DNA of 64,000 bases from Psammoneis japonica (lineage: Eukaryota), in contig QPGO01000011.1 of NCBI GenBank assembly GCA_008632985.1, positions 124,001-188,000 on the forward strand, given 5' to 3'. Of this stretch, positions 7,551-36,682 are shown piece after piece. The notes under the pieces are model-generated. The model was not told the origin of the DNA, did not search any database, and saw only the letters and a list, made by a program, of their open reading frames with translations. The first letter of the stretch is position 1. Each line of letters starts with the position of its first letter. A program made the translations under genes and the position numbers.

Positions 7551-7840
7551 TGCATGCTTGGCTCTTCCAAATGGCTTCAAACAAAGCTTTGACAAAGAAA
7601 CTCAGCAATTGTTGTTGGCATCACAGCGCCGGTGTTCAAGTTTGAATTATTTCCTTTTTGGGGTTCAAACTTTCAATTTTGACCCACTTGGGTTTTAAAT
7701 TTGGATTTTTAGCCCAAATGGGTCCAAAATTGCAGTTTTTGACACACCCCAAAAAAGGGAGGCACACGCTTCTCACAAGGTGAGTTTTTTCTAGCCCTTT
7801 CAGAGCAACCAGGTGAGCAAAAGAGGACAACGCCATTTTT

Positions 7841-13200: not shown

Positions 13201-13599
13201 CCATTCATGTGGTGTGTTTTGTTGAGTCTTTGCATGTTCACAGCCATTTGACTTGCATGTGCTTTTCCTTTCTGCATTGCTCTTTTGTTCTGCGGGCTCT
13301 GTGTTATCGCAAGGCATCCCAGAGACACTTTTTCTCATCAAGAATGTCTTTTCTGCAGTGCGACCATCAGAGTGCACGATGTGGCAATGTCTGCACACAT
13401 GACAAAAACACATTGCTGTGTTGTAAAATCTGCTTGTCCACACATGACAGTCTTTGTCATTCAGTCAATCATTGATCTCCTGCTGCTCTTCATGTTTGAG
13501 CACAGATGTTTTTTAATTTTTGTGCTCTGCCTTTTTCACAACAACTGACGATCTTTAACGGCAAGCCAAACATTGCAATTGCATGCAATGAAATTTTCA

Positions 13600-14400
13600 T
13601 CATGCAAAGTGTGCACTGATTGTTTGATCAATGACTGTGCTCCAATTTGCCCAGTCGTCCGCATCGTCCTCTTCATTCCATGTGTCTTGTCCGCTCTCTT
13701 GCAAGAATTTCAAACATGCCGCTGCCGCGTTGGATGTTTCCTCGTCACCATTCCAAAAAAGCCACACTGCATTTCTTGCATTTGGGTGAACATCATCAAG
13801 AGGAAGAGGTCCCTCAAAACACTGAATCGCATCACTGCTCCCCTCTTGACGTCGTGTTGTCGGCTTCTTTTTGTCTTTCTTCATTTTGCCCGTCCCATTT
13901 TTCTCTTCCTTCCTCGTCTTGGTGCCGCCTGTTTTCACTGTCTCCGGCGTCTTTCCATCTGAATCCTTCTTTTTCATCGATCCCGTCGCCGTCACCTTCA
14001 TCTCTTGTTGTTGTTGTTGTCCCTTCTGTTGTGTCACTTTGTTTTGGATCCATGTTTCTGACTTCTCTCCACGCTGTCTCCATTTCCGGATGTTTCTTTG
14101 TGATTGTTCGCATGCGTCACTTGAAGGCACCCACGTGTTTTTCACGCACCTTAACGCGCATGTAGAAATCCATGTTGTTTTCCAGCACACACACCCTTTC
14201 TCCTGATGCTGTTCTGCACAACATTTTCTTCCATCAGCTCTGCACTCCGCATTGCCCTTTCCCGGCACAATCTCATGCAGGATTTCCCTGGGAGAAGTCA
14301 CACACGCGTCTGGTGGGTTTTTGTGTTTAAAACTCCAAATCGCACCAGGCGCACATGCAACTTCTCCCACACACCACTCTGGCACATTTCCACAGAAACC
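13600..14400 (-). pseudogene. Possible decayed gene remnant, unknown product
   Basis: Protein-like charged segments (...KFLQESGQDTWNEEDDADDWANWSTVIDQTISAHFA*) spread over shifting frames. Confidence 0.3.
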
Positions 14401-17400: not shown

Positions 17401-17895
17401 GTTTCAAACCGTGGTCCAAACATGGGATCATGCAGGTGCTGATTGTGGAGAGTTCAGATGCATGAACTCTGCACAGACATTGATGCTGTGTGGCACAGGG
17501 ATCCATCCTCACCCTGACCTTCGCAATCTTGTCTGTCCAGTGGCCAAGTTGGGAGCGGCGAAGCAAATGGAGGAAATGAAGGTCCCGGTGGAGGAGCGCG
17601 ATTTACTCTTGGAACGGATGGAGGGCGATTTTGATTTGGAAGACTGTGGAAAGAATGGCCAGAGTCTTTGCCATGTGACCTGAGTGCAGCTCGTGAAAAG
17701 ATGGGAATCTGCGATGTCTTTTGTTGCGGACAGCATCTGTTGCTCTTGTTCTCTGATGGGCAATCAATGATCAAGCGGTTTGGAAGGCATGAATGGGAGC
17801 CAGTCCCATTCATGACGATTGATGAAGTTCGAGCCAAACTGGAGCAGCAAAGAGAGGTCACTTTTTCATGGCAATCACATTTGCTTTTTGTCTGA
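14206..17895 (+). pseudogene. Large decayed gene (possible intron ~15505-15611, frameshifts ~16597 and ~17662); tentative HxD and HhH-like motifs
   Basis: Consecutive ORFs 14206-15510, 15529-16605, 16676-17683, 17668-17895 with globular-protein composition, almost no Tyr and excess Cys/His. Confidence 0.55.
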
Positions 17896-18036
17896 TTGTG
17901 CCAACATCATCACATTGATTTCTCGTTCTAACAGGAAGAAGGCCGCCGGTGATTTGTTGTCATTTGCAATGAACAAAAGTGATGATTGCAAGGAGGAGTC
18001 AATTGACGAGAAAACAAGCAAACTTCCTGCACTTGC

Positions 18037-18948
18037 ATGGGTGAAGAGGACAAAAGCGAAGAGCCCATTGACAATGAGCACAACCAAGTTGCACATTGCT
18101 CTGAGGGTGAAGAGGACCACAGCAACTTGGGAGATTGTTTCGCAAGTGACAAAACTGATGGGGAAACACACAATGTGCTGTGGTTGGGGATGACCCGTCC
18201 GCTCAATGCAAGGCAACTATCTTCTCAAGAATCATTCTCTGAGAAGGGGGTGGCCTTGGTGTCGTCTGACCAACACAGGCGAGACAAGGCCCATGCAATG
18301 GCATTTGAGGAATCTAACAAAACAATCACAAACGTCGTTCCAACAGTTTCTCTCCAAGACGGACATCCTGATCTGCACTTAAATTGCAATGTGAAAGCAA
18401 GAGATTTCGTCAAGAGAGTCAAGCAGCAGTTTGAGAAACTTGTTGATTTTGACAATCATGGGTTCAACCAAATCATGTTGGACTGCTGCTGGATGCCAGA
18501 TGGAGAGTGGCACGACAGTTGTTTTGGGGCGACTCAATTTTTCCAAAATCCAATTGATCTTCGGGCCTTGCTCTCCAAAAATGAAGAAGGGGGGGACACA
18601 GTGATTCCCTTTGCTCTTGCAACCTTCTTCCAGGTTGTCAAACAATGGAAGAAATTGTCGGCTGTGTTCGACATGTGCACAATGGACAAGGATGCTGCAA
18701 AGAGCCGTGCGAGTGTGTTCTTTGCAAGCAACCTTGTGGCCCAAGAACAACGAGAATGGTGGCTGGGAAAGCCTTCCAATCAGGAAGAAGCTCATCTTGG
18801 AGTTTCCAAAGAAGACATCAGAACAAAAGCAATGGAAGGTGCTCACGCCGCACTGCTTCACGTGTGCCGCAATGACTTTGCTGATTCTGAAAGGATCAAA
18901 TTCATCATGTTTGCAAGAAAGAGTCAGGCAATCACTGTGAGTGAATGA
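18037..18948 (+). pseudogene. Hypermutated gene, possible Rossmann/methyltransferase-like fold
   Basis: 303-aa ORF with no Tyr; NVLWLGM, VPTVSL and FNQIMLDCCWMP (back-mutates to LDYYWMP) segments. Confidence 0.45.
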
Positions 18949-19668
18949 CAGATCCAGACACGCACCCCATTTTAGAAACAATTCTGACCAACACTTCCTT
19001 CTGTCCTGTGCAGCCCAAACAATGGGGCCTTTTCTTGCGCTTCTGCTGCTCCTGGACATTGTTCATAAACCAAAACATTGTCCCCAATTGCTTTGATGGG
19101 GACAACCCGCAACTCAGGTGAGTGCTGAGTCTTCTCAGGCATTGAAAGCCAGTTGTTTCGTTTGTGATCAAGCTGCCAGCGACTGACCAAGTCTGTGTGC
19201 TGATGCCGTTGCCTCACATTTCTCTGGTCAATGTTGACAGGGCCTTCATCAAGACTCGTGCTTGTCATCCTTGTCTTGTGGATGAGAAGGGAAAAGAAGA
19301 ACAACATGCAAAAAATGGCATGAAAATGGCAAACATCACATTGTCTTCCAGATTTGGATGATTCTTGTGGGTGTGACGTGTCTGCATTTTGATTTTTCAT
19401 CTGGCATTTACAGGAACATTGTTCTTTTTTATTTGCTGTCAAAACAAAGGATGTTGTCTCCGTTGGAATGCAATGACAGCCATGTCAAAAAGCGAGTTGG
19501 ACCATTCATTGTCACGTGCAAATGTGTTCTCAAATTTCATGTCACTGACAACAACCCATGCAATGTCATGGAGAAAAACAGAGTGGCTGGCTGTCTCAAC
19601 ACGACCCAGACGACGGTTGCACTGTCGAACAGCAACACTGCTCTCATTGTTGCCGTGTGAAGATCAAG

Positions 19669-20987
19669 ATGTCGTCTCCAGCACCACCGGCAAAGAAGAG
19701 AAAGAAAAATGAGACTGTTGAGCCAATGAGCCCAAGACTTCAGGCAGTGTTGAAGAGAACAGGTGTGCAGGCAGGCATGGTGCATTGAAATCAGAAGCAG
19801 AGAAGGTGGCTAGAAATGATCTCTTTCCACAGGTGAAGTTTCTCAGTCCATCAGAATTGGCAAGCAACGGGAGCGTCTCAATGTTTGTCAAGAAACAGAT
19901 TGCTGGTGGCAACATGGACACTTCAAATTGGTCAGGAACTTGGGAGGAATGGGCAAAAAAGGTGGTAAAAAGGCAAACCAACAATCGCAGAAACATGGTG
20001 TGTTCGGCCATTGGGGCGGAGGCAATGGCCCGCAAGCCAAGTGACCAATGTGTGTGACTCGAGAGTTGCACGTGTCTCACAAGAAGATGACGGTGGTGCT
20101 TCATCTGTGTGGGCATTGTCACTGAGGAAGAGGGAAAGGAAAAAGAAAAGAAACTCAAGGCGGCAGTCAGGAGGAAAAAGCAAAACAGGAAAAAGTCAAG
20201 CCGTGACAAGAATGAAGAGAACAATGTCCCTTTTGTGCCGACATGGGATCCGTTCAGCCTGGACACTGTCGCCGGCGGCAAACGAAGGAACAAGCAGGCA
20301 TGCAAGTGGTTCTGTGATCACATCCTGCCTCAAACCAAGCAAAAGCAGGCATGGAGTCGCGCCGTCAAAACTGGGAATGCACAGGTCTCACAGTTGTTTG
20401 CGGCAGGTGACGAAGCTTTGGCGCCATCAGCTGTGGAGAATCATTGGCAGGTGTGGGCATGCAGGAACAAGGAGGAGGCGGTGGAAGAATTGGGTGAGGA
20501 AATGGAGCCCGAAGAAACAAGGCCTGCCCCTCGGCACACGAAGCCAAAGAAACAACGAGTGTCTTGGGGAGATGACGGAATCATTCGGTTCAACGATTTA
20601 CACAAAGAGGTGACGAAAGACAGAGACTCCAAGGAGGGCAAGGAGTTTGAAAAGTGGCACGCGGAGATCAAGAAAAGCAAGTGCGAGAAGTCTGGAGAAG
20701 CAAAAAAGAAGAAGAAGACAGCACCGACCGGTGATGCGGAGAAGGCGAAGGCAATGAACAGCCCAGTGGTGGAGAGCAACAGGGACGACAACAGCAATGA
20801 CGATGAGCAGGAGGAAGGTGCAAAAGGAAAAACGAATGATGGAGGAGCCGAATCCGATGAAGACGAGTCCAATGAAGACGAGTCCGATGATGATTGTCAG
20901 CTTAGTTTGGGAGAGTTGCAGCAAGAAAATGTGTGCACAGTTGACACAGCACTCGGTCATTGCACTGCAGACGTGACAAGGAATTGA
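19669..20987 (+). pseudogene. Decayed gene of unknown, probably element-associated family; NLS-like start, acidic tail
   Basis: MSSPAPPAKKRKK...LFPQVKF...VSQLFAAGDEALAPSAVENHWQVW...PRHTKPKKQRVSWGDDGIIRFNDLHKEVTKDRDS; interrupted frames. Confidence 0.6.
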
Positions 20988-23155
20988 CCCAACCGATGAA
21001 ATGTTTTTTTCGTTTAAAACAATGTTTGTGAAAATTAACAAACCAAGGTTTGTGTGGCAATGCAATCATGCATTGGCATGCGGCAACAAGGTGGAGGCAG
21101 AAATGGTGATGTGGACACAGTGAAAAACAGCATGCACAATTCTCAACAAGTCGTTGCAACATGGGTGCACCAAACTTGCAACCAGAGGTTGGCCTGTCAT
21201 CATGTGACAACAATGTTTTGCAATGTTTTGACAAATTGTCATCATGCAAATCCACACATTTTTAACATTTCGTGCACTCTGATGCGATTGGCCACAAAAA
21301 TTAAAAAAAGTCACAGACACAGCATCAGGAAGAGTTCATGAAGAACATGGGAACTTGGTGCTGCAATGTCTTGAGCTGTGCAAGCTCTCAAGAGCTCAAA
21401 TGCATCATTGCGCAGTTTCAACAACAGCTCTCCCTGCCTCCACGTGGTGATGCAGAGTTTGATTTGGCAGACCAGCACATCATGGGGCTCCAATGGCGCG
21501 TGTTGCTTCTTTTGGCTGCACAGCAGTTTGTGGCCCAAAAATGTGTGACTCATTTGCCCTGTTTGTCAGCAAGCCGATGCAACAAATTTGGAGGGTGAAG
21601 GACAGTTGTGTCAAGTCTCAAAAGCAGCTCAAGAGTGCAAGCCAACAAGAGCTGTCAGCTTTGTGATTCAGCAAGTGAGCATTGATTGCAAATTGTGGTG
21701 GCATCACATTTCCATTGTTGCTCTGGAGCAAACAGCAAATGGCACTGATTTGGCTGATGCAGCCAATGTGCGTGCATGCCTTGACAATCTGTTGTGCTGC
21801 ATTCTGAGATTGTGGAATGAAAAGAAGTTCTTGCTCTTGCATTGTTCCATCATGACAGAAATGTTTGAGCTTTCTCAGGCACTTTTGGGGCAATTGGGGA
21901 GTGAAAGAGGGCAAGTGAAAGAGGAGCCATCGAGAGATGCAGACGATGCCATTTTGATGCATTGTCATCTGGCGGCGTCGATGTCATTTGTGCAAAGTGC
22001 CGTGCTTTCTGGCTTTGCACTGCATCTGTGTGAGAATGTGCGTGCTTGGCTCTCGGATGGTCTGCATGCAACAAGTGCACCAGGTGATCTCCAAACGGCC
22101 CTCTTGAAGGTCAAACAGCTCCAAACAAAGCTTTGACAAAAAAAACTTGGCGGTTGTTGTCAAGTTTGCAGTGTCAGTGTGTGGGTTCAATTTTTTTCCT
22201 TTTTTGGGTTCAAACTTTCAATTGCAACCAACTTGGGTTTAAAGCTTGGATTTTGAACCCAATTGGGTCCAAAATTGCAGTTTATGACAAGCCCCAAAAA
22301 AGGGAGGCATGCACTTCTCACAGGGCTGCAAATCACTTCATTCCACCATCCTTCCAAGAGCCACACTGATGCAATGAGATTTGAGATTTTTGCACTTCAA
22401 AAAATGGAAACAAGGCTTGCTGGAGACAGGGTTGTTGAGGTCCTCGCCGGCAATGATCTGATGCATGAACTCAACCATTGCCTGCATGTTGAGGTGCAGG
22501 TCACAGCAGTGCTCCTCCTCTTTTTTGGTCTCTCCTGAAAGGGCAGTGAAATGAAGAGCATCCTGCCCCAAATTGTGGTGGCAAAGACTCACTCACCTTT
22601 GCTCTGGCAGGACTTCTTCATGGACCAACTGCAAGTCATTGCGCAGGACCAAACATTGGGACATCTGAGAGTTTTCCCAACAATTGTTTGTGTGGATGAC
22701 TTCAGCAACACAGGGGATGCAATGAAGCTTCAGCTTGTGGCAAAGAAAGGGAAGTGTGAGGAACTCTGGGGTGGGCAACCAATTCGTTCTCTCCACAAAC
22801 TGCTTTTTGGACACATGCATTGCAACCATGCTCCTGAGCTTGGGCCCAAACAGCTCCATTCTGAAACCATTGGTGAGATGATGCTCTGTGTCATCAAAAT
22901 TGACATCATCAGGAATGACAAAAGAGGGGTTGGGTTCAATCTCCTCTGCTGACAGGGCAAAGTCATTGACCGCCATGGCCGGCTGTCTGTTGGCGGAACA
23001 TGCAGAAAGTGCGCAAATCACAACAGCACACACTCTGGTCAAATTGATTTTGGGGAGACAGTGTGCTGTTGTGAAACATGCAGGAAATGGCATGCACAGA
23101 AGAAACATTGAGAACACAGCAGAGAAACCAGTGCAGAGCTCTGGAAACAAGTGTG

Positions 23156-23551
23156 GACGGGTTCCAGTCCCAGGTGGGACTCTGCGTGACATTGGGCTTG
23201 CAGAATTCTGCGCACGAGCTCCGCAGTAAATTTGTGCTGCAATGAAAATGTGAGTGATCGCCAACAGAAAAAGAGGCAATTTTACGAACGCTTCTCCTCC
23301 TTCATGCTTGCAGCACATCAACAACAGTTTGCCGGGTGTGTTCTGCAGACATTGAAGAACACACCCAGTGTGTTTTCATTCTCACAACTGTTGAAAATGG
23401 AAAGCCTTTGGCTTCGCAAAACAGGGAGCATGAAACAATTTCGTAGAATGCAACACGTGGAAATGCACGTCCGCGACATGTGATGAGATCCAAAAAACTG
23501 TTGATGTCACAGTGCAGCAGCACAAGTTCCCACCCAGAGCTGGAACGCATC
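23156..23551 (+). mobile_element. MITE-A, full-length (396 bp)
   Basis: TIR GACGGGTTCCAG.../...CTGGAACGCATC; 4-bp TSD TGTG; empty site AAGTGTGGTGTGAC at ~5530. Confidence 0.85.
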
Positions 23552-25133
23552 TGTGGTGCGACAAGGAAATGCACACACACACATGGAGGTGACTGGGCAG
23601 ACACGGACAGCAGCATGCGCTGTGACACACAAGGGGGTGAAAACAACAAAGCACAAACCAATTTGAAAGCCAAATTGTCAAAGGCATGGAGCATTGGTTG
23701 TCATGACCCAAAGCTTTGATCACAAAACATTTGCAGATGTGAGTTGCTTGAGCATGAATCATCAACACAAATGGGCAAAAAAATCCTCATGAAAAGGTCA
23801 AATCCTTGCACTGTGAAAACAATGTTCAAGTGTTGGCATCACAGTCAAAAGAATGACACAAACAAAATGCAATGGCACGACAAAAACCAATGAAAGTGAT
23901 TGCCAGCACATTGCGGGCTCTGATGTGCTTGGCTCTTGGGAAAGTTTCTGCACAAAAAGCATGCCAGACAATCTCTGGACCGCCACCTCAAAGGTCAAAT
24001 GGCTCCGACAAAGCTTTGACAAAGCAACTTGGCAGTTGTTGTTGATTTTGCAGCGACAGTGCTCGGATTCAAATTTTTCCTTTTTTGGGTTCAAACTTTC
24101 AATTTTGAACAACTTTGGGTTTTAAATTTGAGTTCTGAACCCAAATGGGTTCAAAATTGCAGTTTTTGACCCACCCCAAAAAAGGGAGGCATGCACTTCT
24201 CAGGAGGTGGCAGGTGACCTGTGCACATTTCCTGTCAGCTTCAACTACACTTGAGCAGGTGTGCCACAGTTTTTGGCCCGTTCATTTTCTGCGTGACCTG
24301 GCACAACCCAATCCATGCAGATTTGGCACATTTTGCCCTGCAGAACAGTTTTTGGGAGTGTTTTCTGGGTCGCAACACAAAATGACATGCAAAATGACAT
24401 GGACAATGGCGTTTTGCTGACTTTAAAAATGCAGTTGTTTCTGAGGTGCTTTGCAGTGTGCTCTCTGTGGAGTGTCGCACATTGTGGCACAAGGCATGCG
24501 ATGAGCTCAAGAGTGCTGCACAGGCTCACAAGGGTGGCTGATTGTGAAAAATCATGTCAAAGGATCGCGTCACAATGTTGCTTCTGTTGCGTTGCGACTG
24601 ACCTCATGCACTGCCATTCATGTTTTGTTTTGCTGAGGCTTTGTGTGTTCACAACCATTTGACTTGCACACGCTTTCTCTTTCTGCGTTGCGCTTTTGTT
24701 CTGCAGGCTTTGCATTGTTGTGAGGTGTCCCAGAGAGACACTTTTTCTCAACCAGCACATCATGGCAGCTCCAATGGTGCAGACCACTTCTTTTGGCTGT
24801 GCAGCCGCTTGTGACCAAAAAAAATGTGGCTTGTTTGGCCCATTTGTTTGTGAGCCAATGCAACAAATTTAGAGCATGAAGGACAAGACAGATGCACAGT
24901 TGTGTAAGTCTCAGAAGCAGCTCAAGAGTGCAAGCCAACAAGAGCTGCTGGCTTTGTAATTTGGCAAGTGAGCATTGAGTGTGGTTCATGGGGGCATCAT
25001 GTCTCCATTGTTTTCCAGGAGCAAGCAGCAGGTTGATTTGATTTGACTGATGCAGCCAGTGTGCACACATGCCTTGACAATCTGTTGCACTGCATTCTGA
25101 GATTGTAGAATGAAAAGGAGCACTTGGACTTGC

Positions 25134-25531
25134 GACATGTTCCAGCTCCAGGTGGGACCTCGTGCCACTGAACTGTGACATCAACAGTTTTTTGGATTGC
25201 GTCGTGTGTCGCACACGTGCATTTCCATGTGTGATGTTCTGCGAAATTGTTCCATGCTCCCTGTTTTGCAAAGCCAAAGGCTTTCCATTTTCAACATTTG
25301 TGAGAATGAAAATGCACTGGGTGTGTTCTTTGATGTCTGAAGAACACACCCGGGCAAACTGTCAATGATGTGCTCCAAGTGTGAAGGAGGAGACACGTTC
25401 ATAAAATTGCCTCTTGCTCTGTTGGCGATCATTTGTGTTTTCATTGCAGCACAAAATTTGCTGCGGAGCTCGCACGCAGAATTCTGCGGGCCCAATGTCA
25501 CATGGAGTCCCACCTGGGAATGGAGCCCGTC
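25134..25531 (-). mobile_element. MITE-A, inverted copy (same insertion site as 9831, so copied by segmental duplication)
   Basis: Same flanks and sequence as 9831-10219. Confidence 0.8.
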
Positions 25532-26965
25532 TTGTGCATCACTCTGCAACAACAGAAATCAGGAGCTTTCTCTGGCCCTTTTGGGGCAATTGGGCAAGTG
25601 AACGAGGAGCCATCGAATGATGCGGATGATGCCATTTTCATGCACTGTCATCTGGCAGTGTTGTTGTCATTCATGACGAAGAGCCGCGCTTTCTTGCTTT
25701 GTGCTGCATCTGTGTGGGAATGTGCATGCTTGGCTCTTGGGCTGTTTCTGTGCAAAAAGTGCACCAGGCAATCTCTGACCCACTCTCTCAAAGGCCAAAT
25801 GGCTCAAACAAAGCTTTGACAAAGAAGCTCAGCAATTGTTGTTGGTTTTGCAGCGCCGGTGTTTTGGTTCAATTTTTGTTGCGTGCTGCACTCTGAGATT
25901 GTGGAATGAAAAGAAGCACTTGCGTTTGCATTGCTCTGTCACAACAGAAATGCACAATCTTTCCCTGGCTCTTTTGTTGGGGCAATCACGCAAGTGAAAG
26001 AGGAGCCATCAAAAGATGTGGATGAAGCCATTTTGATGCATTGTCATCTGGTGGTGTCATCGTCATTCATGACGAAGAGCTGCGCTTTCTTGCTTTGTGC
26101 TGCGTTGGTGTGTGGGAGTGTGCATGCTTGGCTCTTCCAAATGGCTTCAAACAAAGCTTTGACAAAGAAACTCAGCAATTGTTGTTGGCATCACAGCACC
26201 GGTGTTCAAGTTTAAATTTTTTCCTTTTTGGGGTTCAAACTTTCAATTTTGACCCACTTGGGTTTTAAGTTTAGATTTTGAGCCCAAATGGGTCCAAAAT
26301 TGCAGTTTTGACCCACCCCTCAAAAAGGGAGGCACACGCTTCTCACAAGGTGAGTTTTTTCTGGCCCTTTCAGAGCAATCGGGCGAGCAAAAGAGGAGCT
26401 GTCAAAAGATGTGGACAATGCCATTTTGGCACATTGTCGCCTGGTGGTGTCATCATCATCCCTGACAATGAAATGCTGTTCTTTCTGGTTTCATGCTGCA
26501 TCCTTGCAGGAATGTGCGTGCTTGGCTCTTGGACAGTTTCTGTTCAAAAAGCACACCAGGCGATCTCTGGACCACCCTCTTGAAGGTCAAACAGCTCCAA
26601 ACAAAGCTTTGACAAAGAAACTCGGCAACTGTTGTCAACTTTGCAGTGTTGGTGTTTGGGTTCAAAATTTTTCCTTTTTTGGGTTCAAACTTTCAACTTT
26701 GACTGACTTGGGTTTTAAATTTGGATTTTGAGCCCAACTGGGTCCAAAATTGCAGTTTTCAACCTGCCCCAAAAAAGGGAGGCATGTGCTTCTCATGAGG
26801 CGGCAGGGCGACCTGTGCACATTTCCCACCAGCTTGAATTGCACTCAAGTGGATGCGCCACAGTTCTCAGCCCGTTTGTTTCCTGCATCGCCTGGCACAA
26901 CCCAAATCTGTGAAGATTCAGTGCATTTTGCCCTGCAGAACAGTTTTTGGGAGTGTTTTCTGGGT

Positions 26966-27362
26966 GACGCGTTCCAGATGCAGGTGGGAATCCGTGTGAC
27001 ATGGGCCCGCAGAATTCTGCGTGCGAGCTCCGCAGCAAAATCATTGGGCAGTTAATGTGTCAATGACCGCCAACAGAAAATGAGGCAATTTTGCGAATGC
27101 ACAAACTCGCCCATGATTGAAGTGCATCATTTTTCACTTGATGCAGTGCATTCTTCAGACATTGAAGAACAAACCAGGTGCATTGATGTTCCCACAATTT
27201 TGTCAAATGAAACATCTGGGAATTTGCAAAACGGCGAGTCTGGAACAATTTTTTGGAAGATCACACGCAGAAATGCACGTGTGAAACATGCGACGGATGA
27301 CAAAAAATGATTGTGTCACACGTCAGCACTGCGAGCTCCACCACCCAGGGCTGGAATGCGTC
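26966..27362 (+). mobile_element. Divergent MITE-A relative
   Basis: GACGCGTTCCAG...CTGGAATGCGTC termini; internal similarity to MITE-A. Confidence 0.7.
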
Positions 27363-30315
27363 AGGCTGTGACACAAAACAACACACACAAAATGACTCGG
27401 ACAATGGTGTTTTGCCAATTTCAAAAGTGCGGTTGTTTCTGAGGCACTTTGCAGTGTGCTCCACATTTTGCCCTGTGGAACAGATTTTGGGAGTGTTTTC
27501 TGGGTTGCAATGCAAAACAACACGGAAAATGACACAGACAATGGCACTTTGCTGACTTCAAAAATGCGGTTGTTTCTGAGGCACTTTGTGGTGTGCTCTC
27601 AATGGAACATCACACACCATGGCACAAGGTGTGTGACAAGGTCAAGCTTGAGAGTGCGCTGGTTCACATGGGCAGCTGATGGTGAAAAATCATGTTGTTG
27701 AAGGTTTGCATTGACAATGTTGCTTCTGTTGCATCATGACCAACCTCATGCGCTGCCATTCATGTGGTGTGTTTTGTTGAGGCTTTGCATGTTCACAACC
27801 ATTTGACTTGCATGTGCTTTTCCTTTCTGCGTTGCTCTTTTGTTCTGCGGGCTCTGCATTGTCATGAGGCATCCCAGAGACACTTTTTCTCATCAAGAAT
27901 GTCATTTCTGCAATGCGGTGGCCGCAAAAATTCAAAAAGTCACAGACACAGCATCGGAAAAAGTCCATGATGAACATGGCAACTTGGCACTGTGATGTCT
28001 TGAGCTGAGCAAGCTCTCAAGAGCTCAAACTCATCATTGCGCAGATTCAACAACAGCTCTCCCACTCCATGTGGGGATGCAGAGTTTGACTTGGCAGACC
28101 AGTGCATCATGGTGGCTCCAATGGTGCAGATTGCTTCTTTTGGCTGCGCAGCAGTTTGTGACCCAAAAATGTGTGACTCATTTGCCCCATTTGTCAGCAA
28201 GCCAATGTGACAAATGTGGAGGGTGAAGGACAGTTGTGTCAAGTCTCAGAAGCAACTCAAGAGTGCAAGCCAACAAGTGCTGTCAGCTTTGTGATTCAGC
28301 AAGTGAGCATTGAGCGCAATTTGGGGGGCATCACATCTCCATTGTTGCTCTCGAGCAAACAGCAAATGTGTTGATTTGGCTGATGCAGCCAATGTGGTGC
28401 CATGCCTTGACAATCTGTTGTGCTGCATTTTCAGATTGCGGGATGAAAAGAAGTGCTTGCGCTTGCATCGCTCTGCATGACAGAAATGTTTGAGCTTTCT
28501 CAGGCCCTTTTGGGGCAATCAGGGGAGTGAAAGAGGGCAAGTTAAAGAGGAGCTGTCAAAAGATGCAGACAATGCCATTTTGATGCATTGTCATCTGGCG
28601 GTGTCAACGTCATTCATGACAAAGTGCCATGCTTTCTGGCTTTACACTGCATCTGTGTGGGAATGTGAGTGGTTGGCTCTCGGATGGTCTGCACGCAACA
28701 AGTGCACCAGGTGATCTCTGAACTGCCCTCTTGAAGGTCAAACAGCTCCAAACAAAGCTTTGACAAAAAAACTTGGCAGTTGTTGTCAATTTTGCAGTGT
28801 CAGTGTTCGGGTTCAAATTTTTTCCTTTTTTGGGTTCAACCTTTCAATTTTGACCAACTTGGGTTTTAAACTTGAATTTTGAACCCAACTGGGTCCAAAA
28901 TTGCAATTTTTGACCCGCCCCAAAAAAGGGAGGCATGCACTTCTCACAAGGCAGCAGGCAATCTGCGCACATTTCCCATCAGCTTGAGCTGTGCTTGAGT
29001 TGGCGCGCCGCAGTTCTTGGCCCGCTTGTTTTTGGCATGGCCTGGTGCAACCCAAATCTGCACAGGCTTGGCACATTTTGCCCTGTGGAACAGTTTTGGA
29101 GTGTTTTCTGGGCTGCAATGGAAAATGATGTGGACAACGGCATTTTGCAAACTTCAAAAATGTGGTTGTTTCTGAGGGTTTTAAGTTTGGATTTTGAACC
29201 CAACTGCATCCAAAATTGCAGTTTTTGACCCGCCCCAAAAAAGGGAGGCGCGCGTGCTTCTCACGAGGTGGCAGGTGACCTGTGCAAATTTCGCTTTTGT
29301 TGTGTCATGACTGGCCTTGTGCATCGCCATTTATGCTGTGTGCTTTGTTGAGGCTTTGCATGTTTGGAGCCATTTGACTTGCATGTGCTTTCCCTTTTTG
29401 CATTGTTCTTTTGTTCTGCAGGCTCTGCGTTGTCACGAGGCATCCCAGAGACAATTTCTCTTGTCAAGAATGTCATTTCTGCAGTGTGATGGCCATGACA
29501 TTTCAAGAACAAGGCCAAGTCACAGACACAGCATCAGGAAGAGTTCACAACAAATGTGGCAACTTGGCACCACGATGTCTTGAGCTGAACAAGCTCTCAA
29601 GAGCTCTCCCTGCCTCCATGTGGTGATGCAGAGTTTGGCTTGGTGGAGACCAGCACATCATGGTGGCTCCAATGGCACAGATTGCTTCTCTCAGCTGTGC
29701 AGCAGTTCTTGCCAATGCAACAAATTTAGAGGGTGAAGGACAACAAGACAAATGTGCAGTTGTGTCAAGTCTCAGAAGCAGCTCAAGAGAGCAATGGCTC
29801 TTGGCAGTTTCTGCACAAAAAGTGCACCAGGTGATCTCTGAACCACCCCCTCAAAGGCCAAATGGCTCCAATCAAAGCTTTGACAAAGAAACTCAGCAAC
29901 TGTTGTTGGTTTTGCAGCGCCAGTGTTTGGGTTTGAATTTTTTCCTTTTTTGGGCTCAAACTTTCAGTTTTGACCAACTTGGGTTTTAAGTTTAGATTTT
30001 GAACCCGACTGGGTCCAAAATTGCAATTTTTGACCCGCCCTGAAAAAGGGAGCCACGTGCTTCTCACAAGGTGAGCTTTCCCTGGCCCTTTTGGAGCAAT
30101 TGTGTGAGCAAAAGAGGAGCTGTCAAAAGATGCGGGCAATGCCATTTTGGCGCATTGTTGTCTGGTGGTGTCATCATCATTCATGACAATGAAGTGTTGT
30201 TCTTTCTGGTTTTGTGCTGCTTCCTTGCAGGAATGTGTGTGCTTGGCTCTTGGACAGTTTCTGCACAAAAAGCACACCAGGCGATCTCTGGACCACCCTC
30301 TTGAAGGTCAAACAG

Positions 30316-30871
30316 GACGTGTTCCAGCCGCACGTGAACCAAATCATGCACAAAAATGACATTTGCGTGATTTTTGTGTGGCCCCCAACTTGTGATCAAA
30401 CTTTCACCACCAAAAGCATGTGTTCATGCAAATGCAGATGTTTTGCAATACTGACAAGACTCGTGTGAGTGTTGCAACATCATTGTTGTTGTGCTGTCCA
30501 TGTTTTTCATTGCACTGAAAGATTTGCAACACAACGGATGATTTTCGGTGAAAATGTTGCCGTCATTTGGATGTCACCCAAACGCATCTTTCAACGATGC
30601 TGCTTGGCAGGTTTTCTGCCTGCAAAGAAATCTCGCTGTAAATCCACTGACGTGCAATCAGCATTGAGTCTGCTGGGGAAGTTTGTGACACATGTCCCAT
30701 GAGGACTTGAATGCCCAACAAAAAACTGTTTAAATGTCCACACTCCACATGCCTGCAAAAGCCAATCCCCTTGGGCATTTCACATGAAAATGCTCCGCAC
30801 TGCTGCAGGATGCACAATTTACACTCAAAATCGATTGTCATTTTGTGCATCACCTGGGGCTGGAACACGTC
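30316..30871 (+). mobile_element. MITE-B (556 bp)
   Basis: TIR GACGTGTTCCAG/CTGGAACACGTC; 4-bp TSD ACAG interrupting AAGGTCAAACAGCTCCAA. Confidence 0.88.
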
Positions 30872-32335
30872 ACAGCTCCAAGCAAAGCTTCAAGAAACTT
30901 GGCAATTGTTGTCAACTTTGCAGTGTTGGTGTTTGGGTTCAAAATTTTTCTTTTTTGGGTTCAAACTTTCAACTTTGACCAACTTGGGTTTTAAATTTGG
31001 ATTTTAGCCCCAGTTGGGTCCAAAATTGCAATTTTTGACCCGCCAAAAGGGAGGCAAGCGCTTCTCACGAAGCGACAGGAGATCTGTGCACATTTCCCAT
31101 CAGCTTGAGCTGCGCTGTGGTGGGCACACCACAGTTCTTGGCCCGTTCATTTTCTGCCTTGCCTGGTGCAACCCAAATCTGCACAGGCTCAGCACATTTT
31201 GCCCTGTGGAACAGATTTTGGGAGTGTTTTCTGGGTTGCGACACAAAACAACACGCAAAATGACATGGACAACAGCATTTTGCCAACTTCAAAAATGTGG
31301 TTGTTTCTGAGGCACTTTTTGGTGTGCTCTCAATGGAGCATCACACACCATGGCACAAGGTGTGACACAAGATCAAGCTTGAGAGCCCACAGGTTCACAT
31401 GTGGGCAGCTGATGGCGAAAAATCACATTGAAGGTTTGCACTGACAATGTCGCTTCTGTTGTGTCACGACCAACCTCGTGCATTGCAGTTCATGCTGTGT
31501 GCTTTGTCAAGGCTTTGCATGTTTGGAGCCATTTGACTTGCATGTGCTTTCCCTTTCTGCTCTGTTCTTTTTTGTTCTGCAGGCTTTGCGTTGTTGCGAG
31601 GCATCCCAGAGACACTTTCTCTCATCAAGAATGTCATTTCTGCAAGCGCAATGGCCACGACAACTCAAGAACAAGGCCGAGTCACAGACACAGCATTGGG
31701 AAGAGTTCACAACAAATGCAGCAACTTGGCGCCATGATGTCTTGAGCTGAACAAGCTCTCAAGAGCTCAGACACATCATCGCACAGTTTTGACAACAGCT
31801 CTCCCTGCCTCCATGTGGTGATGCACAGTTTGACTCAGCAGACCAGCAAATCATGGCTGCTCCAATGGCGCAGATTGCTTTTTTTGGCTGTGCAGCAGCT
31901 CACAACCCAGAAATGTGTGACTCATTTGCCACATTTGTTGGCAAGCCAATGCAACAAATTTGGAGAGTGAAGGATGAGACAGATGCACAGCAGTTGTGTC
32001 AAGTCTCACAAGCAGCTTTGCAACTCAGCAAGTGAGTGTTGAGAGCAACTTGTGGGGGCATCACATCTCCATTGTTGCTCTGGAGCAAACAGCAAATGGT
32101 GTTGATTTGGCTGCTGCAGCCAGTGTGTGTGCGTGCCTTGACAATCTGTTGTGCTGCACTCTGAGATTGTGGAATGAGAAAAGAAGTGCATGCGCTTGCA
32201 TTGCTCCATCATGACAGAATGTGTCATCTTTCCCTGACCCTTTTGGAGTGTTTGGGTGAGTGAAAGAGGAGCTGTCAAAAGATGCGGGTGATGCCATTTT
32301 GAGGCACTGTTGTCTGGAGGTGTCGACGTCATCAG

Positions 32336-32755
32336 AAAAGAGAGAGCAAAAGCATTGCCAGCCATTGAGGCACGCGTTGCCCACATTCGAAAGGTGGCAG
32401 AATCAAAGCTGCATCTGCTGATTGGACGCCAGCATTCGTGCTGTTTGCACGACTTTTTTGGCGGACAGATGATGGGGGGCATGGCTCAATGAAGCTTGAG
32501 CTTGGATGGGAACAAAGGTGTTGCATTCTGTCAGTTCAATGACATTTCAAACACGAAAGATTGCACTGCAAACTGGTGCTTGAGATTGAATGCGCTGGAT
32601 TTGACAGAAGATCAGAGGCAAGAAATTGTTGATGAGGTGAACTTTGTCTTTGTGCTGAACATCGCAATTTTTGATGAGCTGGAGGGCTCGCCATTGAAGG
32701 CTGTTTTGACCCTTGCATGGAATTCGTTCAAGCACAAAGTCAGTCAGTGCAGCAT
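32336..32755 (+). pseudogene. TpA-hypermutated copy of the heme oxygenase 3' half
   Basis: ARVAHIRKVAESKLHLLIGRQHSCCLHDFFGGQMMGGMAQ* versus AYVARIRKVAESKPYLLIGHQYSRYLGDLFGGQMMGGMAQR; CGA->TGA stop at 32490. Confidence 0.95.
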
Positions 32756-33160
32756 CGAACCAGACCATTGGTGCAGAGAAAAAGCAGCAGGCTGCAGTCA
32801 GTGCTGTGCGCACAGATGTAAATAGTTCAACTCATGTCTCTATGCGTCTGTCATAATGCCAAGAATCTAAAGGGGAAAGAGAGAATGTCTGAAGCCGTTC
32901 TTGGAGATCATGTTTAACTGTGTCTTTGTGAATTCCGAATCGAAAGACTTTTTTAAAAAGGGCAAGGGCAATTGAGAATGTCCTAGGATTCTGAATGCGA
33001 TGACAGAATGACACAGAATGATGACCCGCCGACTGACTCACATCCTTTCCCGCCCTTTCCCCGCCTCATCAACGAAGACCGAGAAATGCTCTGGAAGTGT
33101 GAAGGATTACTGGAGTATATCGCAAAGAAAACACATAAGAAAGTTGATTTGGGAAGAAAC

Positions 33161-33679
33161 ATGAAATCTGCGTTGATATCTCTCTGTCTAGTGATGTTGC
33201 GGTGCGGCACTGGGCGAGCCAAAAAGCACCAGAACGTTTACGGTGGTGATTTATTACCGTGTTCTTCGGAAGGGATGGCTCTTACGGGATTTACGCGTTC
33301 GGGGTATTGCGTTGATGAAAATGATGATATGGGATCTCATCACATCTGTATTGACTTATCTAGTACGGATGGAGGTAATTTTTGTGATGTGACCGGGCAA
33401 GACGATTGGTGTTCATCGGAAATGCCTTGCGATGGCGACTCTGATTCCTATTGCCCAGTGCAGAACTGGTGTGTCTGTCAATGGGCATTCGCGAGTTATC
33501 TCGCCAAAGCTGGTGGGTGCGATCAGATTCAAAACATTGCGTGCGAGTCCATTAATATTCAAGCGATTTGGGCTTACCAGCATGGCAATAGAAAGCATAG
33601 GAAGGCTTTGGCATGTCTCGTGGAGAGATGTGGACTCGACATGACTAACCGCAACTTGCATTCCGAAGAAGTTTTGTAA
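33161..33679 (+). CDS. DUF2237-family protein with signal peptide
   Basis: MKSALISLCLVML signal; NVYGGDLLPCS...TGFTRSGYC...DMGSHHIC...WCVCQWAF pattern. Confidence 0.78.
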   Translation: MKSALISLCLVMLRCGTGRAKKHQNVYGGDLLPCSSEGMALTGFTRSGYCVDENDDMGSHHICIDLSSTDGGNFCDVTGQDDWCSSEMPCDGDSDSYCPVQNWCVCQWAFASYLAKAGGCDQIQNIACESINIQAIWAYQHGNRKHRKALACLVERCGLDMTNRNLHSEEVL

Positions 33680-33787: not shown

Positions 33788-36682
33788 CTATGAATTACGA
33801 TTGTCTATGTTCCCGAATCCCTTTTGTCCGTCATCGATTGCCTTCGCCAAAATCAAAAGTGCATCAGAAAGCTTCTGAATCCTGTCGGAGAGGTCTATAC
33901 ATCGATTGTTACTCTCTTCTTTTCGGCTGGAATCATTCTCCGTGCATTGTTGTGTTGTGTTTTTGGCGGTGCGTTTGTCTCCAGAAAAATTATGACCTAG
34001 GGCTTCCGCCAACAGTTCTTCCAGATAGGCTACTAGGGACTGCTCATTAACGGCACCGCAGCTTGATTTTCTGCTCAAAATCATGACATCGCCAGCCACC
34101 TTCCAAAACATTTCTCCCCTCTTCAGCATTTTGACAGACATTTGAATGATGGGGCTTTCTGAATACGAAAGGGGACCAACTTGCGCCTTGAGGCGTTCAT
34201 GAGTGATCAGGTCAAGAGGCGTAAGACCATACTTCTCTTTTGTTTGTAAAATCGACTCGTCTCCCATAGCTAGCGCCGTGTACAAGATACGCTCTAAGTC
34301 TTGAGAATATGTGTATGAAACTTGGTCATTTCGACGCGCTCCCATTGCGGTGTCGCCCAGATTCAAAAGAAGCAGATGAAGGGGTGTCCGGCTGTCAACA
34401 TCTCCTACAGAAAGTAGCTGCGGAAAGTCTTGTATCATGGAAACAATAAGGTCCGCCCATTCAGTAGAGATGGATCCTCCAAGGTCGCCGACAAGCACGG
34501 CGACGCGATGAAGAGTAGACCAGCCCCGTCCGTCTTGTTCGAGTATAGCGTCGGGGTGGTGTTGGTAAAGCAGCTGCAGTGATCGTAACAATGGATCCCG
34601 TTTGTCTTTTCGAAAGGATGACAAAGTTTGCGGGTCTTCCATGACAATGGCCAAAGCAGTCGACCCACGACTATTTGGTACCGCTGAGGCTTCTGGGTAG
34701 GAATTCAGTAGCAATCGAACTGTTTCAACCTGGTACTCACACTCCATCATGTTTGTGCAATCCCTCACCTCTTGAACTGCTTTATGAAGGGGTAAATCGC
34801 CGGCGTTGTTCTTGGCTTGCAAGGCTTCTTGGTGCGATTCAATCAGCATTTCAACTGTCGCGCCCCAGAAGTGATCTGTACCTGCAGATTTGCTAATCCT
34901 GTGAATGGCAAGTTCGCCTTCTTTGTCAACAACTGATGCTGCTCCTGGGTAGATGTTTAGAAGTTGCGATACAATCTTGTGGTTATTCTCGCCAGTATGC
35001 GGAAATGGATATAGCCCATTCGTTGTACAGGCATCATGCAACGGCAAAGAACCCGAGTCTGACTCAATTTGAGCTACAAAAGGGTCCGACTGAAGAATCT
35101 TTTCGACCGCATATGCATCATGCGCAAGACAAGCCAAAGACAGCGGCGTTTTTCCGTCCTTGCCGAGCCCACGCACGGCACCTTGGTTGGCTTCAAACAA
35201 AGTATCAAAGACAACCCTTCGACTCGCAAGGCTAAAGGTAGTCTCGTTGATGGCGCTTTTCCAAACAATATGGAGGGGTAAATCTCCGTCGTTGCTGATT
35301 TTGGAAGAGCATGTTGGATCCAGTTTAAGAGATTCATTGAGCAACTTTTTCATATCGACAGCTGTTAAGAACAACGGCCCGTTCTCTACCAACGCATGGA
35401 TTGAAGACAATGTAGTTTCGTCCACTGGGCAAATCGCTTTTGGGTTGAGTTTAACCAACAAGGATTGAACCCGAAAAGGAGCACTAACAGTAATCGCATT
35501 ATGCAGGGGTAGCTGGTTGGTCTCGGGGTCCTTGATGTTGGCCGCATCAGGAAATGCTTTGAGAAGCTTGATGATGATTTCTTCCACATGAGCCGCAGAA
35601 CTAATTGTAGCGTCATTGGAGAAGTCAAAAGATGCCATGACAAGATGCAGAGGTAGGAATCCGTCAGACGTAGGTTGCTTTGCGCCTTGAGGATTCGACT
35701 CTAGCAGTAGATCCACAATTTCACCATTTAGATCTCCGCCTTGACACGCGTAATGGATAGGCAAGTATCCAAACCCATCTCGAACGTGGGCGCTCTTGGG
35801 GTATGCTTGCAAGAGTGAGGATACAATTTCTTTTGACGTGCAGCATGTGGACAGCGCTGTATGAATGGGCAACTGTCCTACACGATTGATGAGCTTGGCA
35901 GCTTCTGGTAGACCGTCCAAAAAGGCGGTGTAAATTGTGTTGTTGACAATCGAGGGAGATACTGCGTAGTGAAGCAGAGTGTTCCCTTCTGTCTCGTCCC
36001 GATATTCTAATGCGCCACTTTTATCCAAATCCACGGCATATCGTACCGCATCGGGTGAAGTTCGACCGTACTTGGCCATAATGACAAGAGGCGTCTCGTC
36101 GTCTTCGTCCGGAACGGACAAGGTTTCGGGTCCCTGTTGGATCAAATATTGAATCACAGGCATGGCGTGTGGAACATCCCCGCCCCACACTGCCAAGTGA
36201 ATGGGTAGAGACCCGTCTTGGTCTGGATTGCGTACTGCGTTTGGATTGGCCTGGACGAGTGCTTCAATAATGTCGAGTGATGACAGAGGCGTCGTGGTGG
36301 CAGCGTGCAGTGCAAGCCGATCTTGGGAGTCCTTCTCTTGAACTGCGTGTGGGTTTGCTTTGAGAAGCGCATCAATTATAGACAATGGGGGTGGATTTGT
36401 TGAATAAAGAGCCACGTGTAAAGGCAGCCTCATTTGCATATCCTGCAATGCCGAAGCGTGCGGATTCGTATGTAACAAGGCCAAAACCAGTTCGATTTGA
36501 CCCTTGGACATTTCTTCTTGGTTCAGCTCTGTCTGAATTCCTTCATGCTTTGGTAAATCAACGGAAAAGGCTTCATGCAATGGCAAATGTCGCGTTATGA
36601 TTTTGCCCGCATCGTTTCGCTTTTCAATCAAGACAAAGCTTCGTCGGGTGCTTGTTGTAGCTGCTTTTGTGCTTCTAACCAT
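33788..36682 (-). CDS. Ankyrin-repeat protein (~960 aa; probably extends 5' to ~36870 across a frameshift)
   Basis: Many G-x-LPLH-x-A...LL-x-x-x-P repeats. Confidence 0.88.
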   Translation of the reverse strand: MVRSTKAATTSTRRSFVLIEKRNDAGKIITRHLPLHEAFSVDLPKHEGIQTELNQEEMSKGQIELVLALLHTNPHASALQDMQMRLPLHVALYSTNPPPLSIIDALLKANPHAVQEKDSQDRLALHAATTTPLSSLDIIEALVQANPNAVRNPDQDGSLPIHLAVWGGDVPHAMPVIQYLIQQGPETLSVPDEDDETPLVIMAKYGRTSPDAVRYAVDLDKSGALEYRDETEGNTLLHYAVSPSIVNNTIYTAFLDGLPEAAKLINRVGQLPIHTALSTCCTSKEIVSSLLQAYPKSAHVRDGFGYLPIHYACQGGDLNGEIVDLLLESNPQGAKQPTSDGFLPLHLVMASFDFSNDATISSAAHVEEIIIKLLKAFPDAANIKDPETNQLPLHNAITVSAPFRVQSLLVKLNPKAICPVDETTLSSIHALVENGPLFLTAVDMKKLLNESLKLDPTCSSKISNDGDLPLHIVWKSAINETTFSLASRRVVFDTLFEANQGAVRGLGKDGKTPLSLACLAHDAYAVEKILQSDPFVAQIESDSGSLPLHDACTTNGLYPFPHTGENNHKIVSQLLNIYPGAASVVDKEGELAIHRISKSAGTDHFWGATVEMLIESHQEALQAKNNAGDLPLHKAVQEVRDCTNMMECEYQVETVRLLLNSYPEASAVPNSRGSTALAIVMEDPQTLSSFRKDKRDPLLRSLQLLYQHHPDAILEQDGRGWSTLHRVAVLVGDLGGSISTEWADLIVSMIQDFPQLLSVGDVDSRTPLHLLLLNLGDTAMGARRNDQVSYTYSQDLERILYTALAMGDESILQTKEKYGLTPLDLITHERLKAQVGPLSYSESPIIQMSVKMLKRGEMFWKVAGDVMILSRKSSCGAVNEQSLVAYLEELLAEALGHNFSGDKRTAKNTTQQCTENDSSRKEESNNRCIDLSDRIQKLSDALLILAKAIDDGQKGFGNIDNRNS

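Follow-up and report, generated by a model that had tools for sequence, protein, structure and literature searches.

The window analysed here is a 64,000-nucleotide stretch of genomic DNA from Psammoneis japonica (NCBI GenBank assembly GCA_008632985.1, contig QPGO01000011.1, positions 124,001 to 188,000 of the forward strand), and all positions given below are those of the window. At 32337-32818 it contains a dead, hypermutated copy of the 3′ half of a heme oxygenase gene, in which the dinucleotide TpA has been replaced at nearly every site by TpG or CpA. The replacement follows a context rule that is very probably real: the adenine of a TpA step is lost fast in T-A-C and T-A-T, at an intermediate rate in T-A-G, and is nearly immune in T-A-A. 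(R denotes a purine, Y a pyrimidine, V any base except T, and N any base.) RTA>RCA and TAY>TGY describe a single event as it appears on either strand, the motif T-A-Y with its adenine mutated being equivalent to R-T-A with its thymine mutated.

The direction of change was read from two dead gene fragments compared with their intact parents over about 1200 aligned columns. Because both parents lie in the same window as the dead fragments, the direction of every change is known. The four sequences compared are as follows.

1365..2228, plus strand: intact heme oxygenase gene (Pfam PF01126, E = 2.9e-60, profile positions 3-204 of 204), TpA density normal
32337..32818, plus strand: the flagged dead, hypermutated copy of the heme oxygenase 3′ half, aligned to 1795-2329
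33788..36682, minus strand: intact ankyrin-repeat gene, parent of the fragment at 2567-3334 (open reading frame (ORF) of 964 amino acids, Pfam Ank_2 E = 1.7e-34), TpA density normal
2567..3334, minus strand: dead copy of the ankyrin gene 3′ end, whose edge at 2594-2646 is mosaic and whose hypermutation starts at about 2614

Self-BLAST paired 1791-2563 with 32337-33054 (80.2% identity over 786 columns, covering the heme oxygenase 3′ half and downstream sequence) and 2567-3334 with 33732-34498 (89.7% identity over 773 columns, covering the ankyrin 3′ end). The first of these alignments demonstrates that the initial annotation had placed the flagged stretch correctly and that the stretch is indeed a dead heme oxygenase copy. 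Its unmutated parent is the 3′ half of the intact gene, from 1795, and the copy itself still matches Pfam PF01126 with E = 8e-9. The parent copies, at 1795-2329 and 33775-34498, retain their TpA sites, and the changes are restricted to the copies that adjoin the repeats described below.

Parents and dead copies differ by 125 substitutions, namely 46 A>G, 32 T>C, 23 C>T, 13 G>A and 11 transversions. At the 53 parental TpA sites of both copies, 26 were converted to TG, 20 to CA, 2 to CG and 1 to AA, and 4 were kept; 48 of the 49 changed sites gave TG, CA or CG. The heme oxygenase copy contributed 23 listed sites (12 TG, 8 CA, 1 CG, 1 AA and 1 kept at the edge) and the ankyrin copy 30 (14 TG, 12 CA, 1 CG and 3 kept, two of these at the edge). 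Three of the four kept sites lie at block edges, and the fourth, a CTAA at 3129, is the only internal survivor of the ankyrin copy, as had been noticed initially.

With the two strands folded together, A>G change was observed at 51 of 105 adenines preceded by T and at 27 of 546 preceded by A, C or G. After T, the frequency varied with the 3′ base (TAC 24/30, TAT 15/31, TAG 7/27, TAA 5/17). A second target is an adenine followed by a pyrimidine and lacking the 5′ T (V-A-Y), which is roughly ten-fold weaker and was changed at 7-10% of sites versus about 2% at V-A-R. The counts without a 5′ T were NAT 15/151 (p = 0.0004 against NAR), NAC 6/87 (p = 0.03), NAG 3/122 and NAA 3/186, with NAR at 6/308 overall. 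ApT had initially been proposed as this weaker target, and the changes cited for it (GAAT>GAGT, GGATCC>GGGCCC and CATC>CGCC) are visible in the alignments; the target is broader than ApT, as it includes NAC. Loss of TpA exceeded 90% in the same fragments that show 2% A>G change at V-A-R. C>T change was concentrated at CpG (21/108 versus 15/426 elsewhere), which accounts for 21 of the 36 C:G>T:A changes, a pattern that probably reflects 5-methylcytosine decay in a silenced domain.

The dead fragments form the two ends of a much larger TpA-depleted block, and a second, smaller block was found elsewhere in the window. These blocks and the parts of the first are listed here, with observed/expected ratios abbreviated o/e.

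2614..32818, unstranded: TpA-depleted block 1, about 30 kb, made up of a multi-copy element between two repeat arrays, with a dead gene fragment at either end
3335..13362, unstranded: left repeat array identified by self-BLAST, with units of about 1.7-2.6 kb that are 70-96% alike to right-array units
13363..21288, plus strand: element of 8 kb with a broken gene (about 14428-17680), without a self-BLAST match in the window and multi-copy in the source sample
21289..32336, unstranded: right repeat array identified by self-BLAST
56332..58773, unstranded: block 2, smaller and less saturated (TA o/e 0.10, TG 1.41, CA 1.36, CG 0.84; 15 TA in 2301 bases)

Both blocks are bounded, poor in TpA and rich in CpA and TpG. 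In block 1 the o/e values are 0.05 for TA, 1.79 for CA, 1.66 for TG and 0.43 for CG, compared with 0.58 for TA, 1.17 for both CA and TG, and 0.99 for CG outside; 102 TA are present where about 1224 would be predicted from the outside density. The edges of block 1 are sharp to about 10-50 bases, the right edge falling between 32812 and 32819 and the left edge being mosaic over 2594-2646. The element at 13363-21288 is not repeated within the window, yet it is depleted of TpA as strongly as the arrays. In run X1 its summed contig depth was 3800-22000, versus 55-77 for single-copy pieces. Both strands were hit, as had been proposed, and they were used equally: block 1 contains 3355 TG and 3117 CA, and there were no strand-coordinated TG/CA runs beyond what context produces (10 and 14 observed, simulated means 10.6 and 12.8).

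CpG depletion in block 1 is uneven: the arrays have values of about 0.3-0.4, and the insert parts 13500-17500 and 20000-21000 are close to normal, while TpA is equally low throughout; CpG decay is therefore separable from TpA loss. The GC dinucleotide was also observed at an o/e of 1.29 in block 1, versus 1.00 outside and only 1.06 in the insert between the arrays, and AT is low (0.81). Double hits from AT to GC at ApT, such as GGATCC>GGGCCC, could contribute to the GC-dinucleotide excess. Scans of the block for RNA families and for tandem repeats returned none.

The context rule was measured first as site survival, defined as the number of TpA sites left in both blocks (117 in 32.5 kb) relative to the sequence outside them (1267 in 31.2 kb), with the strands folded. 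The ten tetranucleotide classes gave the following values.

TTAA: 39 left, 52 outside, survival 0.72
CTAA or TTAG: 21 left, 94 outside, survival 0.22
GTAA or TTAC: 21 left, 174 outside, survival 0.12
CTAG: 6 left, 57 outside, survival 0.10
ATAA or TTAT: 11 left, 146 outside, survival 0.07
CTAC or GTAG: 13 left, 186 outside, survival 0.07
ATAG or CTAT: 5 left, 161 outside, survival 0.03
ATAC or GTAT: 1 left, 215 outside, survival 0.004
ATAT: 0 left, 90 outside, survival 0
GTAC: 0 left, 92 outside, survival 0

The NTAN contexts were thus lost at unequal rates, and strand asymmetry was absent. Grouped by flanking purine or pyrimidine, the counts left and outside were 66/203 for YTAR, 25/312 for RTAR, 25/355 for YTAY and 1/397 for RTAY, the last corresponding to a survival of 0.002 (chi-square p = 3.4e-28). 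Residual TpA is largely YTAR, as the initial annotation had stated (66 of 117, comprising 39 TTAA, 21 CTAA/TTAG and 6 CTAG, versus 203 of 1267 outside). YTAR was confirmed as the most resistant class; its resistance proved to be graded, being strong for TTAA, weaker for CTAA/TTAG and weaker still for CTAG. An additive model in which each adenine of the TpA step is lost at a rate set solely by its 3′ neighbour reproduces all ten classes with four parameters (k = 0.18 for A, 1.13 for G, 1.99 for C and 2.58 for T).

Each of the two arrays, and also the insert, shows this order of the classes when taken alone. Survival in the left array was 0.37 for YTAR, 0.075 for RTAR, 0.049 for YTAY and 0 for RTAY, and in the right array 0.25, 0.061, 0.046 and 0.007, respectively. 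In block 2 no RTAY is left, and the remaining classes survive at 0.20-0.27. The insert alone still holds TTAA at 12 sites. Around the surviving sites T is over-represented at -3 and -2, and A at +1 and +2, giving a TTTAAA-like surrounding (A at +2 in 62% versus 26% outside), which may mean that DNA shape or bases beyond the adjacent ones have an influence.

In the arrays, a TTAA lies within a conserved GGGTTTTAAATTTGG-like motif that is kept in at least 13 repeat units, for example at 6101, 8660, 11063, 24122, 26715 and 30991. The TTAA of this GGGTTTTAAATTTGG-like motif may be either protected by its context or conserved for another reason.

Context also governed which letter of TpA was changed. 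Over both dead copies, RTAR sites gave 9 CA and 3 TG, RTAY 7 CA and 8 TG, YTAY 2 CA and 10 TG, and YTAR 2 CA and 5 TG. The difference in product choice between RTAR and YTAY is significant (Fisher p = 0.012), the rule was followed at 19 of 24 informative sites (binomial p = 0.0066), and a Bradley-Terry likelihood ratio rejects equal strengths (p = 0.0006). In the heme oxygenase copy taken separately, YTAY sites went mostly to TG (6 TG and 1 CA of 7, the initial count having been 5 of 6); CA led at sites with a 5′ purine as claimed, although more weakly than the claim implied (6 CA, 4 TG and 1 CG of 11).

The same preference was observed across the whole of block 1, in support of the RTA>RCA and TAY>TGY rule as originally put forward. 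Products expected from the rule (RCAR plus YTGY) occur at 68.4 per kb in block 1 versus 40.2 outside, and anti-rule products (RTGR plus YCAY) at 42.7 versus 35.3. Fisher tests of rule against anti-rule products gave p = 4e-10 for block 1 overall, 1e-8 for the left array, 9e-8 for the right array and 0.03 for the insert; the enrichment was not significant in block 2. The most enriched trinucleotide is GCA/TGC, at 1.93 times its outside value, and an estimate from density differences gave 71-91% CA at the four RTAR contexts. Survival data alone cannot place the deciding base next to the mutated base or two bases away from it, whereas product choice can. Product choice fits a deciding base that directly flanks the mutated one (on the side not taken by its TpA partner) and does not fit a base two positions away.

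Several results are weak or fit the rule, or its simplest form, poorly. Of the 39 surviving TTAA, 13 represent one homologous repeat-unit site and are hence non-independent, and the outside sequence used as reference is genic and serves only as a proxy for the original composition of the blocks. The two measures also rank the bases differently: survival gives T at or above C, then G, then far below A, and product choice at the 46 direct sites gives C above T and A, which are about equal, and G last. Rates fitted to the survivors predicted the direction of change at 19 of 26 informative direct sites (p = 0.029), and their likelihood of -33.0 was no better than that of a coin (-31.9). Paralogous columns of the arrays gave a mean TG fraction of 0.43 for R..R and 0.56 for Y..Y, a trend in the expected direction that is non-significant (p = 0.18), and the tyrosine codons of the broken element gene described below likewise showed a trend only (5 Cys to 3 His after a 5′ Y, 2 Cys to 3 His after a 5′ R).

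The arrangement of the dead copies and their parents indicates how the block is embedded in host sequence. A host segment made up of the heme oxygenase 3′ half, a DUF2237 gene and the ankyrin 3′ end is directly duplicated and flanks a 29-kb insert at 3335-32336. The additional gene of this segment is:

33008..33679, plus strand: DUF2237 gene (Pfam PF09996, E = 2.1e-9), just outside the edge of block 1

Positions 33055-33731 have no counterpart at the 2563/2567 junction, where a clean deletion of about 670 bases took the whole DUF2237 gene from the left copy; the right copy keeps this gene intact. Among named proteins, the closest homologs of the intact heme oxygenase all come from diatoms (Fistulifera, Thalassiosira, Mediolabrus, Amphora and Skeletonema), with 55-71% identity and none identical.

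Enzymatic adenine deamination is the most likely mechanism for these changes, with a probability of roughly 0.45. A silent, repeat-filled chromosomal domain, comprising block 1 and the small block 2, would have been rewritten in place by a process acting at the DNA level, and at block 1 the domain would take in about 0.5-0.7 kb of host gene fragment at each edge. The process would turn A:T into G:C almost only at TpA, on either strand, and its rate at each A:T pair of TpA would be set by the base adjoining the mutated base. One dependence of this kind would explain the early loss of RTAY, the persistence of YTAR and above all of TTAA, and the products RTAR>RCAR and YTAY>YTGY. We infer that the agent is an enzyme and that adenine is its target: a TadA/ADAT-like deaminase recruited to silent, CpG-methylated chromatin would deaminate adenine to hypoxanthine, and replication would then fix the change as G:C.

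Natural eukaryotic ADAT2/3 substrates include U-A-A and U-A-G and are not known to include U-A-U, an order that is not mirrored here and that counts against such an enzyme, as does the symmetry of the target: because TpA is its own reverse complement, attack on adenine and attack on thymine are inseparable from sequence. The initial annotation had pointed to the liking of TadA-type deaminases for T-A-Y, in agreement with the preferences of engineered editors given in the available part of one report, where ABE3.1 prefers YAC and the TadA-8e A48E editor (ABE8e-YA) prefers YA, with YAY favoured over YAR (PMC12528748). A Pfam scan of the 23 larger ORFs of the window found no deaminase domain. The trinucleotide fingerprint narrows the search for the enzyme, since a candidate deaminase or thymine modifier must reproduce the same order on oligonucleotides.

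Thymine may instead be the base attacked, although this is unlikely. A TET/JBP-like dioxygenase or another modifier would act on the T of R-T-A in silent chromatin, and the resulting 5-hydroxymethyl- or 5-formyl-uracil would mispair with G to give T>C. All sequence results fit this explanation equally well, the deciding base then being the 5′ neighbour of T. The block, with its CpG o/e of 0.43 and C>T at CpG of 21/108 versus 15/426, is probably marked by 5-methylcytosine and would be natural territory for a TET-type enzyme. Dinoflagellate 5-hydroxymethyluracil and trypanosome telomeric base J are found preferentially at the T of TpA, a point on which a literature search was unsupportive, no paper joining 5-hydroxymethyluracil, dinoflagellate and TpA being found. 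The modified T of trypanosome telomeres stands in T-T-A, which is the most resistant context here and counts against a thymine modifier. Polymerases can place both G and C opposite 5-formyluracil, according to the part of the source available (PMC2673420). Two steps would nevertheless be needed, modification and a fairly inefficient mispairing, yet TpA loss exceeds 90% against a background divergence of a few percent.

It is a good deal less probable than adenine deamination that no dedicated enzyme was involved and that an error-prone polymerase or a mismatch-repair bias in silent chromatin misread the flexible TpA step, with DNA shape setting the context. The TTTAAA-like surroundings of the survivors suggest that wider structural context may matter, and the weak V-A-Y target would fit a graded physical effect; the +2 signal (62% versus 26%) is, however, inflated by the 13 occurrences of a single repeat-unit site. 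A change that runs almost only from A:T to G:C, as here, is what base-modifying enzymes typically produce, and no polymerase or repair bias is known to remove more than 90% of one dinucleotide with a change of only a few percent elsewhere.

The place where the changes arose was considered separately. We infer that the hypermutation is a domain-limited process acting in place, and this is likely on the present evidence: the changed fragments are collinear with their parent genes, change is confined to the copies that adjoin the repeats, the edges are sharp, the element that is unique within the window is as depleted as the arrays, and the layout fits a chromatin-domain process that spread a few hundred bases into neighbouring non-functional DNA. 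Two observations on the repeats speak against an origin at this locus. Duplicates that are 96% alike have TG/CA states in common, and among the 40 best-supported variant places in other genomic copies only 2 are TG>TA, while 18 concern CpG; most TpA loss in the repeats therefore predates their latest spread and need not have arisen here.

The corresponding alternative is judged improbable. In it, the repeats and a host segment picked up with them would have been mutated outside this locus, on a free DNA, a viral DNA or an RNA intermediate, and homologous recombination would then have integrated them, making the edges joints of recombination or gap repair. The layout resembles that of a single crossover, a host segment of 1.5-2.2 kb being duplicated around the 29-kb insert with each copy part normal and part mutated. 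The mosaic left edge, with kept, changed, kept and changed sites in turn, is what heteroduplex repair leaves. The repeats are multi-copy and their other copies are equally poor in TpA, and the TG/CA states common to the 96%-alike duplicates also accord with mutation elsewhere. The two edges, however, fall at different points of the duplicated segment, the left at about 2600 and the right at 32815 (about 2326 when carried over to the left copy), so that a single crossover could account for the layout only with gap repair as an extra step. A route through RNA must in addition strike both strands equally (TG 3355, CA 3117), and must do so in fragments of oppositely oriented genes. In the available text of a preprint on Bigelowiella natans, the same type of spectrum arises in place on chromosomal DNA in a laboratory experiment (10.64898/2026.01.13.699255).

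It is highly improbable that no mutation took place, the pattern being due instead to a foreign element selected to avoid TA or to errors of reading or assembly at modified bases: foreign DNA can show odd dinucleotide usage and some long-read methods systematically miscall modified bases, but the host-derived fragments show the changes site by site against intact parents, the in-frame stops of the degraded element gene imply that selection is not maintaining it, paralogous positions are TG in some copies and CA in others as a deterministic miscall would not make them, and contigs of single-copy depth reproduce the flagged stretch exactly while keeping the parent copy apart.

These contigs come from run X1, in which single-copy contigs (depth 74-77) match 32460-32636 and 32660-32840 with zero differences and the parent copy is a separate contig with 12 differences. 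As run X1 may be the window's own source sample, it rules out a consensus artefact in part only. In run X2 the sole matching contig, at 32368-32795, has 35 differences, and its loose end enters the parent heme oxygenase gene; run X2 holds the parent copy and, as far as seen, not the block. No contig of run X3 matched. Neither of the latter two runs has a bearing on expression.

The broken gene of the element encodes a member of an uncharacterised protein family with 74 representatives. The element ORF matches P0122, its one close homolog, with 57% identity (E = 5e-105), and P0124, a relative of 1135 amino acids, aligns over 14482-17680; the broken protein is more than 1100 amino acids long. 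More degraded fragments of the P0122/P0124 family were found on the minus strand at 4614-5329 in the left array and at 22398-22877 in the right array. All 16 tyrosines in the aligned part of P0122 have been lost in the element, to 7 Cys, 6 His and 3 Phe; the changes TAY>TGY and TAY>CAY predict exactly Tyr to Cys and Tyr to His. The degraded gene contains in-frame stops. For the annotation of such genomes, long apparent ORFs devoid of TAA and TAG stops, and tyrosine-free proteins, can be products of the process.

Searches for the identity of this family were negative. No Pfam domain was detected in 16 and then in 39 of its members, no relatives were found in viral contigs or metagenome contigs, and P0124 had no sequence match in PDB. 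A structural model of P0122 (mean pLDDT 78.7) gave no fold match, the best Foldseek E being 0.46 and the best VIA Z 4.2. A lead towards the phage amino acid:DNA transferase (PF18724) was rejected, since its Atlas score of 0.76 lies below the useful range and 0 of 39 family members match PF18724. Atlas gave no usable match for a 343-amino-acid ORF either, and no homolog was found for the 390-amino-acid ORF of block 2. The block has 188 stop-to-stop ORFs of 80 or more amino acids; in a Pfam scan of the 80 longest, only the host heme oxygenase fragment was matched, apart from two weak hits (E about 0.004-0.005), which are taken as chance. Neither these 80 ORFs nor the search for relatives in viral contigs yielded a viral hallmark for the targets of the block.

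Outside the blocks, an RRP5-like gene with many S1 domains and HAT/TPR repeats was identified at 45631-51940. It is split into ORFs at 45631-46770, 46722-49622 and 50057-51940, and this three-ORF stretch is probably one gene with introns or frame changes.

The pattern described here can be compared with four known systems. Fungal repeat-induced point mutation (RIP) changes C to T at CpA, thereby making TpA, and hits both copies of a duplication. As in RIP, transitions at one dinucleotide riddle repeated silent DNA and can spill into neighbouring sequence. The direction is mirrored, TpA being destroyed and CpA and TpG made in the window; the functional duplicates of both gene fragments are untouched, and a stretch that is unique within the window is hit equally. 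RIP itself was rejected as the source of the changes on account of its opposite direction and of the unmutated parent copies at 1795-2329 and 33775-34498.

The natural site of TadA is the U-A-C-G of the tRNA anticodon loop. TadA, ADAT2 and the TadA-derived editors resemble the present process, as far as the available part of the editor report goes, in their A>G change, in a pyrimidine (T) before the target and in a pyrimidine favoured after it. They differ in that the editors are engineered and act on single-stranded DNA opened by Cas9, and the natural enzymes act on tRNA; a C before the adenine, moreover, gives no advantage here (CAN 11/173 versus AAN 10/203).

ADAR enzymes are animal enzymes acting on RNA that tolerate A before the edited site and favour G after it. 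They share with the window the A>G change, the 5′ U preference and the editing of either strand of a duplex. Their 5′ U preference is also given in the Discussion of the B. natans preprint, in the text available (10.64898/2026.01.13.699255). Editing of the ADAR type was rejected, as the 3′ preference does not fit (TAG 7/27 and TAA 5/17 versus TAC 24/30 and TAT 15/31) and A before the site is about ten-fold worse than T. Since ADAR is an RNA enzyme, the route would need reverse transcription, against which the collinear and sharply bounded fragments argue.

The closest parallel is provided by the mutation-accumulation lines of B. natans, a chlorarachniophyte (Mettrop et al., bioRxiv 10.64898/2026.01.13.699255). 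According to the available text of that preprint, 231 of 302 nuclear mutations fell in two silent viral inserts; 230 of these 231 were A>G or T>C, all at TpA; the de novo rate was about 1000 times the genome background; and 124 TpA-depleted clusters were reported and an ADAT2-like deaminase proposed. The likeness extends to almost exclusive A>G and T>C change at TpA giving TpG and CpA, to bounded silent regions, and to an adenine deaminase as the favoured guess in both cases. The systems differ in that the organisms are unrelated, the present one being diatom-like, and in that the targets here are repeats of an unclassified kind and host gene fragments, compared with viral inserts in B. natans. 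De novo events were demonstrated in B. natans and not here. Depletion is near saturation in the window (o/e 0.05), in comparison with a Rho of 0.45 for the giant-virus insert in the available text. The words context, trinucleotide, tetranucleotide, flanking and neighbo(u)r do not occur in the main text of the preprint as available; the T-A-Y rule, the immunity of TTAA and the V-A-Y side target are therefore not stated in that text.

A literature search found no diatom report of TpA hypermutation. The same signature near saturation in a second lineage implies that the process is either old and widespread or evolved more than once. It is a possible, if doubtful, extension that diatoms and chlorarachniophytes, as distant branches of SAR, share a "reverse RIP", in which a natural DNA adenine deaminase reading T-A-Y would be guided to silent chromatin and would erase TpA from repeats, integrated foreign DNA and any host DNA caught in the domain. 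If true, this would be the first eukaryotic genome defence in nature to work by deaminating adenine in DNA, and context-specific A-to-G editors could be taken from it. The phenomenon in the window is of the kind described in 2026, in one preprint and for one organism; what is new here, relative to B. natans, is its occurrence in a different lineage and its context fingerprint.

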